A DNA stretch of 64,000 bases, from positions 1-64,000 of the IMG/VR virus record IMGVR_UViG_3300036715_000213; one strand, 5' to 3'. This document shows positions 983-15,186 of the stretch, piece after piece; positions within the stretch are counted from its first letter, which is position 1; every line of letters begins with the position of its first letter. The stretch is from a virus. Under the pieces are notes generated by a model. That model was given only the letters and a program-made list of their open reading frames with translations. It searched no databases and was not told where the DNA came from. A program made the translations under genes and the position numbers.

Positions 983-1462
983 TTAAATGTCCGATTCTTC
1001 GTTTAACAATTGAGGATGGTACTCCGCTTTAGGAGCCTCAATATTTATACGGATCGGTTTCTTCTCTTCTGGAATATTATGTTCCAGGAAGATCTTCAAC
1101 AGTCCGTTTACAAACGTCGAACTAGAAACACGCACATCTTCTTTAATCCAGAACTTACGCATCCAATGCTTGTTAGTCAGTCCTTGATGGATAAACGAAT
1201 CCGCGGATTCTGTTTTCTCGGGTGCACATTTGATTACTAATTGCTCACCCTCAACTGTAACCTCAAAGTCACCCAGACTATAGCCAGCGGCAGCTAATTC
1301 GATAACATAATTGTTTTCGTTTAGCTTACGGATATTGTATGGTGGGAATGCGATTTTTGTTTGTTGGGAAAGTGTTTCCATCAACGTTTGACGTGTGCGA
1401 GCAATGTCTCCAAAACCCACCGCGAAACGGTCCCAACCAAAGTCTGTATTTGCGAATTGCAT
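983..1462 (-). CDS. hsp20: small heat-shock protein Hsp20 (IbpA-like)
   Basis: FPPYNI, IELAAAGY, FIHQG, NGLLKIFLEH.IPEEKKP..I.I; SD AAGGAG. Confidence 0.93.
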   Translation of the reverse strand: MQFANTDFGWDRFAVGFGDIARTRQTLMETLSQQTKIAFPPYNIRKLNENNYVIELAAAGYSLGDFEVTVEGEQLVIKCAPEKTESADSFIHQGLTNKHWMRKFWIKEDVRVSSSTFVNGLLKIFLEHNIPEEKKPIRINIEAPKAEYHPQLLNEESDI

Positions 1463-1545
1463 AGTTTTCTCCTTATAATTAGACTTTCGTCCTAATTTAA
1501 ATTAAGTGCCCCTTACGGCAGCACTATCCAGGATCCTCTCCTGAA

Positions 1546-1980
1546 TTACTTTGGCTTGCGCTCACTGCGCATAGCGTACTTTGATTGCAAGTTCCAATTT
1601 TTCTTTTCCTTATACGACACCACTTTGATTGCACTTAGTGGTACTCGCATAACAGTGTATTCATCCGTCTTTACAACGGAACACAATCCCCATTGTTCTA
1701 GAAGAGCCGCGATTGTGTTTCTGCGCGAAATGTCTTCATGGGAGATATCCGATGGACGACCATCAAGCTGAAACAATTCTTTAAACATCGCGCAATAGTA
1801 TTTACCACGCTTGTGAAGAATATGACATGTTTGATAGAGCGTATCGTCTCTCTTGCTTGCTACTCCGATACGGGTTAGCGTTTCTTTAATTTTCAGAAAG
1901 TCATCTGGAGTTAATAGCTCAATTTCCAATAGTGATTCTGCTGACCATGGATATAAGTCAAGTTCGTTTTTTGTTATCAT
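1546..1980 (-). CDS. regA: translational repressor RegA
   Basis: DDFLKIKETLTRIGVAS, LYQTCHILHKRGKYY, RRNTIA.LL.QWGL. Confidence 0.97.
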   Translation of the reverse strand: MITKNELDLYPWSAESLLEIELLTPDDFLKIKETLTRIGVASKRDDTLYQTCHILHKRGKYYCAMFKELFQLDGRPSDISHEDISRRNTIAALLEQWGLCSVVKTDEYTVMRVPLSAIKVVSYKEKKNWNLQSKYAMRSERKPK

Positions 1981-2354
1981 TTCCCACCACGAGTTGTCAT
2001 TTCTTTCAGAGTATTTAGTGAATCTGAATCTAACAGCTTGTGGAAGGAAAGTGCTCTTTGGCGATTAACCTTGTAAGTTTCCATGATCAATGTAATCATG
2101 TCATCTTTTTCCGGCTTGTGCCACTTAGCGAAACGCTTTTTCTTAGGATTGATAGCGATGCGGTAAAAGTCGTATTGCCACTTTTTGGGGATAGTAGTCA
2201 TACGATTCATCTCATTCGCAATCATCACGGTGTCATGATGAAGGCTAAATGCGCGATTAACCATGAAGGAATTGTAGTCTTTTTCGTCTAACTCATCCCA
2301 ATTGTCATTTTTGGACGTTGACAGTTGCCCAATTATTTCAAATGGGTTCGCCAT
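1977..2354 (-). CDS. gp62: clamp loader small subunit
   Basis: YNSFMVNRAFS...D....ANEMN, QYDFY, KKRFAKW; sits between gp44 and regA. Confidence 0.92.
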   Translation of the reverse strand: MANPFEIIGQLSTSKNDNWDELDEKDYNSFMVNRAFSLHHDTVMIANEMNRMTTIPKKWQYDFYRIAINPKKKRFAKWHKPEKDDMITLIMETYKVNRQRALSFHKLLDSDSLNTLKEMTTRGGK

Positions 2355-2640
2355 TATCGTCTACCACAATGTACATAAGGACTTGACCATCTTCCATGTC
2401 TGCGCGGCAGCGTTCTTTACCTTCATCAATTGTGCGTGTCTGAAACAAGAACTTGTTCTTCTCCAGATTATAGAACAAATAAGCACCGTCAGTTACAACA
2501 ATTTCAATGTTAATACATTTGCTTTTCTGCTCACGTTGCTTTGTGTTGTATCCAGAGATAACGCCGCGCCAGTAAAAGAAGCCACAGATCGCCATCCAGA
2601 ACAAAAATGCTCCGAGATTGTCTAATTCAAGCCAGTTCAT
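2338..2640 (-). CDS. hypothetical membrane protein inserted between gp44 and gp62
   Basis: Probable start MNWLELD overlaps the gp44 stop (ATGA); N-terminal hydrophobic helix. Confidence 0.6.
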   Translation of the reverse strand: MNWLELDNLGAFLFWMAICGFFYWRGVISGYNTKQREQKSKCINIEIVVTDGAYLFYNLEKNKFLFQTRTIDEGKERCRADMEDGQVLMYIVVDDNGEPI

Positions 2641-3581
2641 ACCCACTCCGCTTCTGCAGCAAATACTGCAAGGCAAGCTGTAATCAAGAGCTCAGTATCA
2701 GCAACTTGACTGCATTTATATAGATAGTCACCCAGAGTAACAACAATAGAGGGGAGACATCTTGGGGAAAGTAGTGGTGTAGTTTTTTCATATAAGCCTT
2801 TAAAAATATGTAAAGGTTCGATGTCTGAATTTGTTCCAACCCACTTACGCATGTCAGTAAAGTTTTTTGCCTTCAGAGCAACGACCAATTCGTTTAATTG
2901 AGCGTCAACCTGATTCACTAAAATACCAGAATCAATCTTGCCGCTTGAACTGTAACTTTGCAGCGCATTCAATGTGCTACGGAAGTCAGGATAGAACTTT
3001 TTAACCAACTCAGCGATGACTGGTTTGTCGTACTCAACACCTTCACTATCCAAGATGGTGAGAATACGTTTGAAGAAATGCGCTTGTAGTTTCGGCGCTT
3101 CTTCTTTGCTTACCTTAAAATCAATAACAAAACAACGGCTATGGATTGCGTCCATTACCTTGTTCTTAAAATTACAAGTAAAGATAAATCGTGTATTAGG
3201 AAATTGTTCAATAACGCCACGCAACGATTGTTGCTGGGCTGCTGATGCTCCGTCAAACTCATCAAGTAAGACAATCTTAATTCCATCGCCAAACGAAACA
3301 GATGATGCGAACTGAATTACATTCATCCGAACTGCGTCAATACCTTCAAGCGAAGCATTAATGTACATCAAGTCGGCGCCCAACTCATTAGCGATGACTC
3401 GTGCTAAAGTCGTCTTTCCTGTGCCTGCAGATCCAGTGAATAGGAAATGCGGGATGTTTCCGTTATCAATTAGATCCTGGATTGTTTTCTTTGTACCGTC
3501 TGGAAGAATTGCATCAGCCAGTTTGACTGGGCGATACTTCTCAGCCCACACGAGATTGTTCAATTTGTCGTTTTCAATCAT
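2637..3581 (-). CDS. gp44: clamp loader large subunit (RFC-like AAA+)
   Basis: WAEKYRP, Walker A GSAGTGKTT, LLDEFD, SRC. Confidence 0.97.
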   Translation of the reverse strand: MIENDKLNNLVWAEKYRPVKLADAILPDGTKKTIQDLIDNGNIPHFLFTGSAGTGKTTLARVIANELGADLMYINASLEGIDAVRMNVIQFASSVSFGDGIKIVLLDEFDGASAAQQQSLRGVIEQFPNTRFIFTCNFKNKVMDAIHSRCFVIDFKVSKEEAPKLQAHFFKRILTILDSEGVEYDKPVIAELVKKFYPDFRSTLNALQSYSSSGKIDSGILVNQVDAQLNELVVALKAKNFTDMRKWVGTNSDIEPLHIFKGLYEKTTPLLSPRCLPSIVVTLGDYLYKCSQVADTELLITACLAVFAAEAEWV

Positions 3582-3639
3582 GGATTGCTTTCATAATGTA
3601 GATGTCTTATTGTAATAGGAATTACAACGAAACAAAATA

Positions 3640-3900
3640 AAGTAAGAGGTTGATTTGGTTATATAGTCCAACCTCTAAAACACTACACTCTCGGTTTAGG
3701 CAACCAGAGAGAATCTTTCGTCGTTTGCATTTACTGCGATTTAGGTTTTACGTCCACTTTGACGATCTCTATAATTGTTTCCCTGCGCTGTCGAAACTAT
3801 GGCTGGCCCATCAAAAACATTTGAGTTGCTTTTGGTGGACCAGGGCGGTACTGCCCCGCCTTCCAACACATATACGCAATTACAGTTGCTAATTAAATAG
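3640..3900 (-). ncRNA. ssrA: circularly permuted (two-piece) tmRNA; tag ANDERFSLVA* at 3728-3696
   Basis: The acceptor piece ends GGCGG-GGCAGTA-CCGCC-CTGGTCC-A-CCA (CCA at 3833). A 23-nt spacer follows, then the coding piece starts GGGCCAG..TTTCGAC at 3809. GGGCCAG/CTGGTCC pair with a G3.U Ala determinant. Helix 2 pairs CAGCGCA/TGTGTTG and CAATTATAG/CTGTAATTG. Resume context is GTAAAT-GCA AAC GAC GAA. Outer ends are approximate. Confidence 0.92.
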
Positions 3901-4345
3901 CGGATTCTTTATTTAGTTTCTTTGAATGGAAATTCAATCCTGGATTGACTAACTTCTTTCCTTGACCTAATTTCCACCCATCGGGCTGTTCGTTTTCCAT
4001 AAAACAACCGCGCTTAGTCATATTGTCTGGATTATAGTACCAACGAGTTCCTTTAGTTCCTGCAGGATTTCTATTACCACCATTATCTAATTTCATTCCT
4101 TTGCGACTTTTTCTCGGTACTGTATGAGCTTTTTTACCAGCTTCATGTAACATTTGCTTGATGATTTCTTCACGGTTAATCATCTTAGCTAATCCCATCC
4201 ACGCTAACCTATCTTGCCAACGTCCATGCTGTTCAAACAAAACGCGATGTGCTTCTGCATGTTCTTCAATTGAAAGCTCTATCAAATTTTCTAGATTATC
4301 AGTTCCGCCGGCGTGTTTTGGTATGATGTGGTGTTTATGTTTCAT
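3893..4345 (-). CDS. free-standing HNH homing endonuclease
   Basis: HHIIPKHAGGTD...NLIELSIEEHAEAH HNH core; C-terminal GTRWYYN...PDGWKLG DNA-binding module. Confidence 0.88.
   Translation of the reverse strand: MKHKHHIIPKHAGGTDNLENLIELSIEEHAEAHRVLFEQHGRWQDRLAWMGLAKMINREEIIKQMLHEAGKKAHTVPRKSRKGMKLDNGGNRNPAGTKGTRWYYNPDNMTKRGCFMENEQPDGWKLGQGKKLVNPGLNFHSKKLNKESAI
3910..3917 (-). promoter_or_regulatory. late promoter-like ACTAAATA upstream of the tmRNA acceptor piece
   Basis: Matches the window's late consensus; lies in the last codons of the HNH gene. Confidence 0.5.
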
Positions 4346-4346
4346 T

Positions 4347-4381
4347 GTATCGATCCTATGTTTTATTTATAGGATCGATAC
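4347..4381 (-). promoter_or_regulatory. RBS-sequestering hairpin with embedded late promoter TATAAATA (4364-4371)
   Basis: Perfect 13-bp inverted repeat GTATCGATCCTAT/ATAGGATCGATAC; the 3' arm holds the AGGA SD of the HNH gene. Confidence 0.85.
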
Positions 4382-4388
4382 CTTAACA

Positions 4389-4676
4389 TCATATGATTGT
4401 AGTTTTATCAGGTTGCACAGGACGATAAGCCTGTGCAACAATAGGAGAGCTGATTCGAATCGTACTTCCATCTTTACAAGTCACTTCGTGCGGTGTAAAA
4501 GGTGGCCATGTTGTTGGACCCGCAGGTACAAAACCCGGCGGATAATACCCTGGACCAATTGGAGTCATTCGTTCCACATTTGGTTTCATATTGTAAACCA
4601 ATTGGCGGAGCGTTGCTATTTCCCGCTCTAGTGCTGTTACACGGCTGTCGAGAGTATGTTGTGCTAATGTGTTCAT
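4389..4676 (-). CDS. hypothetical protein (short coiled coil plus Pro-rich segment)
   Basis: AAGGA SD directly after the tRNA; 95-aa ORF. Confidence 0.6.
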   Translation of the reverse strand: MNTLAQHTLDSRVTALEREIATLRQLVYNMKPNVERMTPIGPGYYPPGFVPAGPTTWPPFTPHEVTCKDGSTIRISSPIVAQAYRPVQPDKTTII

Positions 4677-4686
4677 ATAAATCCTT

Positions 4687-4762
4687 TGGTGCGGCGTCTG
4701 GGAGTCGAACCCAATATCGGTGAATTATGAGTTCACTGCTTTTACCAATAAGCTACCGCCGC
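4687..4762 (-). tRNA. tRNA with CAT anticodon (elongator Met or Ile2)
   Basis: GCGGCGG-TA-GCTT..AAGC-A-GTGAA-CTCATAA-TTCAC..TTGGG-TTCGACT-CCCAG-ACGCCGC-A-CCA, 76 nt with encoded CCA; lacks initiator features. Confidence 0.93.
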
Positions 4763-4763
4763 A

Positions 4764-4870
4764 GTGGGCTCCTCTATAACTGCACATCCTGAGAAGGAAT
4801 TTATCGTCTTTGACAGCAGTTTATTAAGATTCAGCGGGATGTCTCGGTTACTAACCCGCTTAGAGCCTAC
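4764..4870 (-). ncRNA. putative structured RNA of unknown class in the tRNA 5' leader
   Basis: Closing stem GTAGGCTC/GAGCCCAC; internal stems AGCGGG/CCCGCT and AACTGC/GCAGTT; flanked by a late promoter and the tRNA. Confidence 0.5.
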
Positions 4871-11811: not shown

Positions 11812-12321
11812 TCATTCCATAAATCCTTCTAATGGACTAACTGGATCCGGCTTCTTCTCTTTTACTTTTGGTAAATCGTCTTCACCTAAGCCTTGGATGA
11901 ACTCGTTAATCTGTACAGTAAATTCCCCATCCTCATCTTGGCCTTGTAGTGAGAATGTATCGAATCCAGCACTGCTAACCAATGCACGTTTAATCTTACC
12001 CTGTTTCTTTTCCGCTGTAATTCTCCCAATAAAGCTATACCAGCACGTGGTAGTAAAGTAGCCGAACGGCGATTTGGAACGTTCCGGGTCAAACGACTTA
12101 ACATATTTCAAGCATGTCTCAATCGCATCGCCAATCATTTCATCGCGCCAACTATAACCCGAGAAGTTGGGTCTCTTGGCTAATCCCTCGGCGATCTTAA
12201 TAATGCAGTAGCCGATGTACTCCGGAACTTGGGGTGTTTCGTCAGGATTTGCATCGCAGAGCTTGCGATATTCAACTAACGCTTCGTAAAATTGTGTGTT
12301 ATCAATGTAGTGGGTTGCCAT
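11812..12321 (-). CDS. gp55: late-transcription sigma factor
   Basis: HYIDN..F, YIG.CI.KIAEGL..RPNF.GYS.RDEMI.D.IE.C..Y...FDP..S.SPF.YFT. Confidence 0.96.
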   Translation of the reverse strand: MATHYIDNTQFYEALVEYRKLCDANPDETPQVPEYIGYCIIKIAEGLAKRPNFSGYSWRDEMIGDAIETCLKYVKSFDPERSKSPFGYFTTTCWYSFIGRITAEKKQGKIKRALVSSAGFDTFSLQGQDEDGEFTVQINEFIQGLGEDDLPKVKEKKPDPVSPLEGFME

Positions 12322-12436: not shown

Positions 12437-12829
12437 CTATTGTAATGTTTGATGTGTCTCAAATGTAAAGACATCAGTTGATGGTTCTTCTAAAGTTTGA
12501 TTCATAGCTGATGGAATCTCCAGCTTATTCACTAATTTGACATACATCCGATGAGCATCAGGATGCATTGGTGACAATACCATAATAGACGTAGTCGGTA
12601 TAAAGAAGAGACGAGTCTTAGAGAATGGCATCCAGGACTGACTATTTATCTCATTACGCATTCCATTTTCATCCATAATAGGAATAGTTCGAACTAGAAC
12701 TGGACTTTCAACAATGATTCCATGCTCACGTTCGTCAACAAGAGTCACCATCAATTCCTCACCTGTGGTAAGTTTCATCGTATAAAGCAGTTGATTTGCT
12801 TGAGGAACTGATTCTAAGTTTTCGGTCAT
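12437..12829 (-). CDS. conserved hypothetical (Sm-like) protein downstream of uvsW
   Basis: KLTTGEEL, P.L, WMPFS motifs; ATGA overlap with the uvsW stop. Confidence 0.75.
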   Translation of the reverse strand: MTENLESVPQANQLLYTMKLTTGEELMVTLVDEREHGIIVESPVLVRTIPIMDENGMRNEINSQSWMPFSKTRLFFIPTTSIMVLSPMHPDAHRMYVKLVNKLEIPSAMNQTLEEPSTDVFTFETHQTLQ

Positions 12830-14172
12830 GTTATTGTTAGTTTTCTGAGTGTCCATGAAAAACTTTCCTTCTCATAGATGCTGATACGATCTTCTAAGTG
12901 ATTTTGTGTTGTATTCTTGAACGACTTCCAGCTAAGGTCATCAGCGATGTCGTACAATACGCACTTCTCCTTTCCCTTGTTCAAACGTAGTCCACGGCCG
13001 ATAGATTGACGAATGCGAATTGTTGATTTGCTTGGAATAGCAAAAATTATATTCCTGATGCTCGGTATGTTGACACCAGTAGACATTAGCGCGCTATTAG
13101 CAACAACAATTGCATCCGTCTCCGTACTTAGTATGTTACGAATACGTTCGCGTTCTTCAACGTCCACGCCACCGTGGATAAAGTAAACTTTCCGGTCAGT
13201 AATTTCCCGTATCATTTTCTCAATAATAGCGCCGTGACGATCCACGAAGTTGAACAGCACTAGAGTGTTACCCTTAACAACTGATGCTAGTTTTGCAATG
13301 AAACGATTCCGTGGTTCGTATGCAACCAAGAAAGCAATCTCCTCTTGGTATGTCATTCCCTTATAGGCTTTCCGTATGTGCTCTGGGTACTGTAACACTG
13401 TACAATTAATGTCCAATTGTGACACCTGTCCGTTGTCCATTAGTTCCTTAGTGGAAATAACTTTGTAGATTGGACCCATTAGTCCTTGTAAAACAAGTGC
13501 GTTAATCTTTGCATCGTCAATCGTACCCGTTGTTCCAATACGATACTTGGTAAGGATAAAACGTTCCATAACACTCGAAGCAATACCTGATTTTTGTGTG
13601 TGACAATTTGAAACCATTACACCATTAGCAAAATAATTATGATTATCTTTCACATGTAAATTATATGTATCTTCGTCATTGTTTATCAATTGTATTTCAC
13701 TAATACCAGACCACTCTACAAAATCTTCATACCAATAGCCAAGCTCGCGACGCGTTTTACCTAACATAGTTTTTGGTATTTTATTTTTACTTGCGTTAAT
13801 AGATTGACAAGTTATAATTTTTTGTGAATTTTTGCACCATTGTGCTTCACGTCCAATTAGACTTGTAAAAACTCCCGAAGGAGTATGGTATAATCCCTTA
13901 CATTGTATCGGGTACCATTCTTGCGATCCCCAATATTGCTTATCTACAATGTTTATAGTTTTTGTTTCATTAGAGTATCTATATTTTACTGTTAATTTTT
14001 CTTTTCTGTTAGTAGTAAGATCACTTCGATTATAAAAATCTTCCTTGGATACTGTTTCAACTAAGCCGCTAGCGTTTCTAGCTCTAACTTTATTTTTTTG
14101 TGCTATACTCATATTCAATCTCATTTTAGATGAGTCATAATTTAACCATCTAATTCTATTGTTCTTTACCAT
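12826..14172 (-). CDS. uvsW: UvsW C-terminal part: endonuclease remnant + C-intein + helicase C-extein
   Basis: TYNLHVKDNHNYFANGVMVSN|CH, then GTTGT, STGVNIP, QSIGRGLR (SF2 motifs III-VI). Confidence 0.9.
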   Translation of the reverse strand: MVKNNRIRWLNYDSSKMRLNMSIAQKNKVRARNASGLVETVSKEDFYNRSDLTTNRKEKLTVKYRYSNETKTINIVDKQYWGSQEWYPIQCKGLYHTPSGVFTSLIGREAQWCKNSQKIITCQSINASKNKIPKTMLGKTRRELGYWYEDFVEWSGISEIQLINNDEDTYNLHVKDNHNYFANGVMVSNCHTQKSGIASSVMERFILTKYRIGTTGTIDDAKINALVLQGLMGPIYKVISTKELMDNGQVSQLDINCTVLQYPEHIRKAYKGMTYQEEIAFLVAYEPRNRFIAKLASVVKGNTLVLFNFVDRHGAIIEKMIREITDRKVYFIHGGVDVEERERIRNILSTETDAIVVANSALMSTGVNIPSIRNIIFAIPSKSTIRIRQSIGRGLRLNKGKEKCVLYDIADDLSWKSFKNTTQNHLEDRISIYEKESFSWTLRKLTIT

Positions 14173-14460
14173 GCTTTATGATATACGAATTTTTGAATTA
14201 ATAGTTAATTCGTCTACTCTTACCCATCCACTAGCAGTCATAATTTTATGATTTCCAGTTACTTCAAGAAATTTTCCATTTTTTAATTTGATTTTATATT
14301 TCTGTTCTGTAGAAATATTTTTGTGAAGTTTTATGACTGGTTTGTACTCAACATTTAATGTAGTTTCATTAATTGTTTTTACCATATCTCCGACATTTAT
14401 TTCTTTAATTTTCTTGAAAATATTATTTTCCAATTCAATTAAAGAATCACCAGCCAAACA
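13606..14460 (-). mobile_element. intein in the UvsW DE|CH motif, interrupted by in-frame TAA at 14176-14178
   Basis: Block A CLAGDS, block B VTGNHKI, block F/G YNLHV..NYFANG.MVSN, +1 Cys; visibly more AT-rich than its flanks. Confidence 0.92.
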
Positions 14461-15186
14461 CTCATCCCAGATACCAACTTCAGTACGCTTTACGATTTCG
14501 TCGAACTTCTTTGGGTCGTTTTTCATCATAGATGCTAGCGATTGCCATGTGCTAATTACGACTGACTTTTCAAAGACACGTTCCTTGCCACTATACAGAG
14601 TGCTACAATGTTCTTCAGCATTCCATCCATTTTCACTGCTGTAATCTTCAAAGTCGCTAAACAATTGTTCCACTAGCATTGTAGTGGGTACAACAATCAT
14701 TAGCTTACGTCCATGCTCAATGTGCCAGCGAATGATACACATAATAATCATTGACTTACCGGAAGCTGTTGGGCTTAGCAATAGCTGGCGCTCATTGGAG
14801 ATTGCTTGCCAGACAGCTTCATATTGGTACTCGCGAATGTCTAACTTGTCACCGCGTCCATGTAGATCTAAACTGTCAACAAAATCCTTTGCCTTCTCAT
14901 AAGTTACTTCCAGAGCATTGGAGTTCTTTAAAGATTTGTCGATGAAAAGCTCGTAGTCACGGTTCTTGGCAAACTTGATTATCTCATGGATAAGACCTTT
15001 GTACAGTTGCTTGTTCCGCATGTTGAACAAACGAATCTTCCCGTCCCACATTTTGTTCTTGTAGGAAGGCATGAATCGATATCCCGGAGCCATGAACGTA
15101 AAATACTCGCTGATTTCTTGTTCAATGCCGTAGTCATCCGTCTCAATACGGATGTAGGTTTCGTTACATGGGATAACTTTTATCAT
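14176..15186 (-). CDS. uvsW: UvsW N-terminal part + 94-aa N-intein
   Basis: WDGKIRLF, REYQ, SPTASGKS, STWQS, GIWDE|CLAGD. Confidence 0.92.
   Translation of the reverse strand: MIKVIPCNETYIRIETDDYGIEQEISEYFTFMAPGYRFMPSYKNKMWDGKIRLFNMRNKQLYKGLIHEIIKFAKNRDYELFIDKSLKNSNALEVTYEKAKDFVDSLDLHGRGDKLDIREYQYEAVWQAISNERQLLLSPTASGKSMIIMCIIRWHIEHGRKLMIVVPTTMLVEQLFSDFEDYSSENGWNAEEHCSTLYSGKERVFEKSVVISTWQSLASMMKNDPKKFDEIVKRTEVGIWDECLAGDSLIELENNIFKKIKEINVGDMVKTINETTLNVEYKPVIKLHKNISTEQKYKIKLKNGKFLEVTGNHKIMTASGWVRVDELTINSKIRIS

Follow-up and report, generated by a model that had tools for sequence, protein, structure and literature searches.

The stretch of DNA analysed here (the window) comprises the first 64 kb of the 76-kb viral record IMGVR_UViG_3300036715_000213 of IMG/VR, a record that is about 43% complete, and it carries on its minus strand a gene for the helicase UvsW that is split over two adjacent open reading frames (ORFs), A and B, which lie in the same frame and each contain one half of an intein. 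ORF A (15186..14176, 336 amino acids (aa)) consists of a 242-aa N-extein (14461..15186), ending in GIWDE, and of the 94-aa N-terminal half of the intein (IntN, 14179..14460, CLAGDS...KIRIS). It is closed by the codon TAA at 14178-14176, which is followed by the three nucleotides (nt) AGC at 14175-14173 and then by the ATG at 14172 that opens ORF B. The latter (14172..12826, 448 aa) is made up of an extra piece of 150 aa (13723..14172), of the C-terminal half of the intein proper (IntC, 39 aa, 13606..13722, with blocks F/G ...YNLHVKDNHNYFANGVMVSN and the terminal Asn) and, from CHTQKS onwards, of a 259-aa C-extein with its stop codon (12826..13605). The intein part of ORF B ends ...HNYFANGVMVSN, directly before CHTQKS, and the insertion point is motif II of the UvsW helicase, written here as DE/CH, with the slash at the splice junction.

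Pfam recognises UvsW_N (2.7e-17), DEAD/ResIII and Hint in ORF A, with Intein_splicing also matching IntN, and Helicase_C together with the C-terminal part of Intein_splicing in ORF B; UvsW_N, DEAD/ResIII and Helicase_C mark the interrupted protein as a T4-type superfamily 2 (SF2) UvsW. The helicase motifs of the exteins are all intact (Walker A, motif Ia and the terminal DE of motif II on one side; the +1 Cys of motif II (CH) and motifs III-VI on the other), and each ORF stays open over its whole length in very AT-rich DNA. The GC content is 25% in IntN, 32% in the insert and 26% in IntC, versus 41-42% in the exteins and in the window, and by base composition the intein is foreign to its surroundings. 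The ORF translations agree with the sizes given in a preliminary description of this stretch (an N-part of 94 aa, a C-part of 189 aa and an insert of about 150 aa), and also with the junction peptide proposed there, GIWDECHTQK, the two extein ends reading DE and CHTQKS. The UvsW_N match and the neighbouring ORFs point to a T4-like phage as the source of the DNA; one of these neighbours, at 11812..12321, is presumably gp55-like, as recognised by eye from its translation.

Anatomy of the intein and its stop codon

Read through from one ORF into the other, the intein is a 285-aa element that scores 67.5 bits with Pfam Intein_splicing (66.9 bits in the genome search), the cut-off being 35.8 bits. 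In a phmmer comparison with the sequences of the PDB, two segments of this element had counterparts in the Npu DnaB mini-intein 4o1r, residues 2-93 at its positions 5-98 and residues 249-285 at its positions 107-142, and the alignment with Ssp DnaB 1mi8 was similar. Because the flanks align with the two halves of 4o1r, the short linker of the mini-intein is where the stop (behind residue 94) and all of the sequence as far as residue 248 lie. These alignments put the break in the canonical endonuclease-insertion (split) loop, where inteins are split both naturally and by engineering and to which the preliminary description had assigned it.

The canonical splicing residues are all in place. The N-terminal nucleophile is Cys1 of CLAGDSLIEL, which comes straight after DE and aligns with block A of 4o1r and 1mi8. 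The TxxH of block B is present as TGNH in LEVTGNHKIMT, with its T and H kept in all the relatives described below. Blocks F/G read ...DNHNYFANGVMVSN/C and thus supply the terminal Asn and the +1 Cys, both invariant in the C-half alignment; across four aligned UvsW C-halves the whole pattern NLHVK.NHNYFANG...N/CH is invariant. The penultimate residue of the intein is Ser rather than His, as it also is in Npu DnaE. The locus therefore has the form of a split-intein gene, that is, two ORFs that each join an extein to an intein half and are broken at the endonuclease-insertion loop. It has no free-standing endonuclease ORF between the halves: merely 3 nt separate the two ORFs, and an endonuclease remnant lies inside ORF B. 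Taken with the position of the loop and with at least 14 related loci, these residues bear out the complete N-terminal splicing blocks noted and the natural split proposed previously, and it is well supported that we are dealing with a naturally split class-1 intein (Cys1/Asn/Cys+1) retaining every canonical splicing residue, from which splicing itself is inferred. As a separate observation, MAFFT paired IntC (YNLHVKDNHN) with the latter half of IntN (YE.h.e.G....TGNHK). We would guess that a repeat within the HINT fold lies behind this misalignment, which is a pitfall for alignments of intein fragments.

The stop codon is genuine. Four public metagenome runs contain the stretch, and the Logan contigs of three of them (X1, X2 and X3, three samples from three studies of sediment and microbial mat) were compared with it; the check is one of contigs at a depth of about 3-5 rather than of raw reads, and one run is possibly the window's own source. 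Positions 14176-14178 were covered and read TAA in all three. The X2 contig represents a variant strain; it departs from the window in four places, one of them AGC to AGA in the spacer, and retains both the TAA and the ATG. The relatives agree: in the alignment, their IntN genes stop where that of the window does. The in-frame TAA at the N-intein boundary, with a restart ATG 3 nt further on, thus holds as originally described, and an artefact of a single assembly is very unlikely.

How the second ORF is translated is less clear-cut. The gene call of the source database for this contig (P0024, 428 aa) starts at Met21 (14112-14110) instead of at the first ATG, and another gene call, on a 1,384-bp contig (P0001), starts at Met136. 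RNA folding predicts a stem-loop over 14219..14132 (-25.4 kcal/mol, z -3.6, with 0 of 200 shuffled sequences as stable) that carries the stop/start junction at its tip, where the U of UAA would pair with the A of AUG. This predicted structure is a possible device for translational coupling by termination and reinitiation; hairpins ahead of the downstream ORF have been described in fractured loci (Dassa et al. 2009, PMC2677866). Within the IntC coding sequence, at 13689..13660 of the minus strand, there is also a sigma-70-like promoter close to the consensus (TTGATA-18-TATAAT, 11/12), which is directed into the C-extein and may be a chance match in AT-rich DNA.

The endonuclease-derived module on the C-terminal half

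An exhaustive phmmer search of the 150-aa piece against 1.8 billion representative proteins gave 18 matches, the best being P0004 (E 5.8e-20, 44% identity). The piece, which we call the module, always aligned with the last ~135 aa of proteins of 260-430 aa, which carry an HNH or GIY-YIG head with NUMOD3 at the N-terminus (as judged from motifs, PHROGs and weak Pfam matches). The two ends of the module fit this origin: ORF B begins just past the point where the HNH head of the homologues ends, and IntC begins exactly where the homologues themselves end, 2-4 residues past GKTxRELG(Y/F)W.E. The family motifs YHTPxGxF...WCxNxxK...GKTxRELGYW are present, with 14 of the 14 invariant family columns retained, and AlphaFold2 (AF2) models residues 20-150 with a predicted local distance difference test (pLDDT) score of 85-97. 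No catalytic nuclease head was found by Pfam or PHROGs in residues 1-150, where neither resource gave anything significant, nor was an HNH or other nuclease head found elsewhere in the entire 76-kb record. On this evidence the module is the C-terminal, presumed DNA-binding, domain of a free-standing homing endonuclease of the HNH/GIY-YIG kind whose head has been lost, in line with the earlier view of an endonuclease-like insert of about 150 aa without a catalytic motif.

Other searches of the module were negative. It had no tblastn match in 50,697 phage records and no usable match in the ESM Atlas, and the 189-aa C-piece retrieved nothing in a related-locus search of viral contigs; the module family is known here from metagenomes only. 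For the AF2 model of residues 1-189 of ORF B, Foldseek against the PDB and a wide VIA-align search returned nothing above noise (best Z, 2.6). Because no relative with a solved fold was found, the label 'DNA-binding' is drawn from the position of the domain in homing endonucleases. A descent of the module from the PD-(D/E)xK endonuclease found in the relatives, in degenerate form, was considered and rejected, the hhalign probability being 0.9% and phmmer having supplied real relatives.

One homologue carries the same fusion with its head intact. In P0018, a 562-aa protein from a Logan assembly, a single ORF encodes an HNH head followed by the window's module, by IntC and by the UvsW C-extein, and PHROGs assign residues 6-245 of the protein to phrog_655 ('homing endonuclease'), 5-95 to phrog_12434 ('HNH') and 269-555 to phrog_9690 ('DNA helicase'). 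It is colinear with residues 32-447 of ORF B (43% identity, E 8e-116), and because the alignment runs through the junction of module and IntC, the fusion is shared and not a private accident of the window. By this comparison the window has the architecture of P0018 minus the HNH head. The IntN of P0018 is presumably encoded in a separate upstream gene, because the protein starts at the normal N-terminus of the free-standing homologues.

The same module is found at two other loci. In L084 (1065-3471, plus strand) an intein-less uvsW is followed directly by an HNH endonuclease with the window's C-terminal module; of the UvsW relatives found, this one is the closest (46-52% extein identity, 46% in the N-extein), and because of its layout the module-bearing endonuclease family may associate with uvsW even where there is no intein. 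PMC2988022 gives uvsW as the target of T4 segE. In L090 (28-3219, plus strand) an ORF that looks terminase-like by eye has an apparent mini-intein (C...SHN/C), and after it comes a GIY-YIG-type endonuclease with the window's module at its end.

Related split UvsW loci

The locus had no megablast match in the 50,697 phage records, and tblastn of the intein against cultured phages led to uvsW of Salmonella S16-type phages and of Proteus phage PM2. In these phages uvsW is annotated in pieces: the first gene (327 aa) closes with IntN (IVEWK-stop), the second encodes a 291-aa 'hypothetical protein' with NUMOD3 and a TnsA-like nuclease (phrog 'endonuclease'), and the third opens with a 35-aa IntC (MRLKSIKE...HNYFANGALAHN/CH). 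Counting cultured phages together with viral and metagenome contigs, at least 14 related loci have the same intein at the same DE/CH site. Every intein-bearing locus has the Cys after DE, the T and H of block B and the N/C of the C-terminal junction, and the IntN genes of the relatives end within 1-2 residues of the window's stop position. Identity to the window's IntN is 42-49% in L002-L009. Two further UvsW C-halves, P0002 and P0003, start at their own Met with an IntC of 40-44 aa. P0002 (258 aa, from an ENA contig of 148,935 bp) diverges from the C-half family past helicase motif IV/V (...GKLLFFGSNSIRITLYES...), where the gene may be interrupted a second time.

The preliminary description had seen here a split intein in the making, and this is unsupported. 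Because distant relatives (25-48% extein identity), the cultured and viable S16-type phages and PM2 among them, share the position of the split, the split is ancestral, and what the window shows is rather a split intein to whose IntC a decaying endonuclease is fused. Selection for splicing is likewise inferred, because the catalytic residues are invariant across more than 14 diverged relatives.

As states of one orthologous intein, the loci span almost every stage that has been proposed for the life cycle of split inteins. Empty alleles with an intact DECH are found in L010 and L084, and a contiguous mini-intein in L093. An endonuclease gene, of PD-(D/E)xK type or HNH, separates the halves in L002, L003, L006-L009 and L097-L099, so that the fractured state occurs with two unrelated endonuclease families: PD-(D/E)xK-type in L006-L009, L097 and L099 (with L005 and L091 partial) and HNH in L098. 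The endonuclease is itself in pieces in L092 and L094, only its C-terminal tail remains, fused to IntN, in L096, and it is lost from the split locus L004. The IntC-fused states, with the head in P0018 and headless in the window, complete the series.

Some of these loci deserve a closer description. In L096 (2246-3412, plus strand) the reading frame of IntN goes on for another ~25 aa, similar to the C-terminal tail of the PD-(D/E)xK endonucleases of relatives (RLKWLKKA); from this resemblance the endonuclease appears to have been almost wholly deleted and its tail joined to IntN, a mirror image of the IntC fusion in the window. In L092 (2725-3853) and L094 (2784-3996), both on the plus strand, frameshifts divide the endonuclease gene into 2-3 ORFs while both intein halves are intact, and these look like decaying endonucleases in split loci. 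L093 encodes at 2909-4855 (plus strand) the UvsW with the contiguous mini-intein at DE/CH, without an endonuclease, and upstream of it, at 1047-2471 (plus strand), what by eye is a RecA/UvsX-like ATPase with an apparent intein right before the P-loop (SSHN/SGKSF).

Competing readings and comparison with known systems

We think it likely that the window holds a naturally split class-1 intein that divides uvsW between two neighbouring cistrons of the same strand. Both cistrons would be read from one transcript; ribosomes would stop at UAA and re-initiate at the AUG 3 nt downstream or, alternatively, start at Met21. IntN (94 aa) and module-IntC (189 aa) would then dock into a HINT fold, and splicing would proceed through an N-S shift at Cys1, trans-thioesterification to Cys+1, cyclisation of Asn and an S-N shift. 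The product would be a UvsW of 501 aa with the DECH of motif II restored, and the by-product a complex of IntN with module-IntC that could no longer cut DNA and would not home. Historically, a mini-intein of the kind still contiguous in L093 would have come first and would have been broken by free-standing endonuclease genes. In one lineage an HNH endonuclease would then have lost its stop codon and become fused to IntC, as in P0018, and the HNH head would later have been deleted in the lineage of the window.

Several points speak against this interpretation. The start codon of the C-half is uncertain: no Shine-Dalgarno sequence precedes ATG 14172, and IntC would be a plain 54-aa piece if translation began at Met136. 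For the 285-aa read-through intein AF2 gave a poor model (mean pLDDT 54; IntN alone was confident), which was not used, and there is no RNA run among the sequencing runs that contain the stretch. To our knowledge, splicing is not documented for any natural split intein whose IntC bears a 150-aa domain, and an extension of this size could slow or block docking. The separate IntN gene of P0018 is presumed solely from the endonuclease-type N-terminus of that protein. In T4, UvsW is not strictly essential, so that a dead gene could persist. Lastly, the single-nucleotide polymorphisms (SNPs) at the module/IntC edge are all three non-synonymous (R108H, C122R and V152A) and so hint at relaxed constraint there; set beside the two extein SNPs among the strains, both synonymous, they suggest that the module is less constrained than the helicase, on SNP numbers that are tiny.

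These edge SNPs, the headless endonuclease and the restart ATG without a Shine-Dalgarno sequence would also suit a decaying gene, in which the intein or the C-half is non-functional and uvsW is a tolerated pseudogene. We regard such decay as unlikely, given that both ORFs have stayed open over very AT-rich DNA, that the helicase motifs and intein blocks are all intact, that the extein SNPs are synonymous, that the module keeps all its invariant family columns and that P0018 has the same layout with an intact endonuclease. No more probable, in our estimate, is a non-covalent clasp, in which the halves would dock through their intein pieces and, unspliced, work as a helicase of two chains. A module of such bulk on IntC might indeed disfavour the splicing chemistry, but all the splicing residues are present and invariant across more than 14 diverged relatives, and, with the break inside motif II, about 280 aa of unremoved intein would occupy the ATPase site.

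The two remaining alternatives concern the stop codon and are less probable than these. Read-through of TAA followed by cis-splicing would draw on a contiguous precursor, which the in-frame TAA-AGC-ATG would indeed yield and which, when translated, is the element that scores 67.5 bits with Pfam Intein_splicing. In the relatives, however, the halves lie in different frames or whole genes apart, and because of this read-through cannot be the mechanism of the family. UAA followed by A is, moreover, an efficient terminator, and no suppressor tRNA was seen, tRNA-Met being the only tRNA within the 64-kb window of this incomplete record. We therefore give read-through very little credence, and slightly less still to an assembly or sequencing artefact that would hide a sense codon in a contiguous intein. 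The sequence does come from a metagenome assembly, and the depth in the public runs is low; yet three runs from three studies agree on TAA, the strain variant with four differences retains it, and the end of IntN coincides with the ends in all the split relatives.

Accepting a naturally split, trans-splicing intein as the preferred reading, we would add a more tentative proposal, to which we give less than even weight: that split inteins bearing an endonuclease as an N-terminal extension of IntC, as in P0018, form a natural class of their own, and that the headless module of the window has been retained for a residual role. If this is true, the supply of endonuclease would be tied to the synthesis and trans-splicing of the C-half of the host protein, and the headless module may occupy the homing site in uvsW, shielding it from related endonucleases, or tune expression.

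With these loci UvsW joins the hosts of natural split inteins, and motif II becomes a new insertion site. A literature search found no paper with both 'split intein' and 'UvsW' and nothing on the S16 uvsW with an endonuclease, subscription papers such as the S16 genome paper lying outside its scope; where papers mention intein and UvsW, the passages concerned draw no link between them. Since the UvsW intein family is large and diverse and includes the cultured S16-type phages and PM2, wet-lab testing would be straightforward. The preliminary description had also envisaged a protein-ligation tool, for which the relatives with a short IntC (35-41 aa) are better candidates, as orthogonal ligation tools of the Cys type, than the 189-aa C-piece of the window.

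The intein resembles, and departs from, several known systems. It shares the HINT blocks, and an extra domain at the usual endonuclease loop, with bifunctional inteins and with the DnaB mini-inteins 4o1r and 1mi8. Unlike in bifunctional inteins, the chain is interrupted between IntN and the inserted domain, and the insert is the presumed DNA-binding part of an endonuclease of free-standing type, not of LAGLIDADG. As in nrdA-a/mobE/nrdA-b of Aeh1, a phage gene is split by a mobile endonuclease and its halves must reassemble; the Aeh1 protein lacks splicing residues and its assembly is thought to be non-covalent (PMC3045599), whereas the intein in the window has them all. Salmonella phages S16 and CF-SP2 (Gelderlandvirus) and Proteus phage PM2 share with the window the gene, the DE/CH site and the end point of IntN, with 42-46% identity in IntN and ~52-55% in IntC. 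They differ from it in their free-standing 291-aa NUMOD3 and TnsA-like endonuclease gene and their 35-aa IntC, and their uvsW pieces are annotated as 'DNA helicase', 'hypothetical protein' or 'uvsW_1-3', never as a split intein.

The locus falls into the class of 'fractured genes' of Dassa et al. 2009 (PMC2677866), in which split inteins flank a free-standing homing endonuclease gene (gp41-1, NrdJ-1, IMPDH-1 and others) and which include loci that have lost the endonuclease (gp41-7). As in these, the affected gene is a phage gene of DNA metabolism, the break falls at the endonuclease-insertion site of its intein, and the halves are neighbours on one strand. The S16-type phages, PM2, L006-L009 and L097-L099 have the exact fractured layout of IntN gene, endonuclease gene and IntC gene, and L004 and L096 resemble gp41-7. 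However, and in spite of these similarities, there are clear differences: (i) UvsW is absent from the eight host enzymes listed in that study; (ii) the window has no separate endonuclease ORF, a nuclease-less remnant being fused in frame to IntC instead; and (iii) the module belongs to a family with HNH or GIY-YIG heads, which differs from the Vsr/TnsA-like endonuclease of that study and of most of the relatives. What is new is therefore UvsW as a host gene, motif II as a site and the endonuclease fused to IntC. P0018 shares the fusion of module, IntC and C-extein with the window and, unlike it, retains the HNH head; the fusion in the window amounts to half of the hypothetical step IIIa of PMC2677866, and the IntC-fused states, intact and headless, are intermediates that had merely been postulated there.

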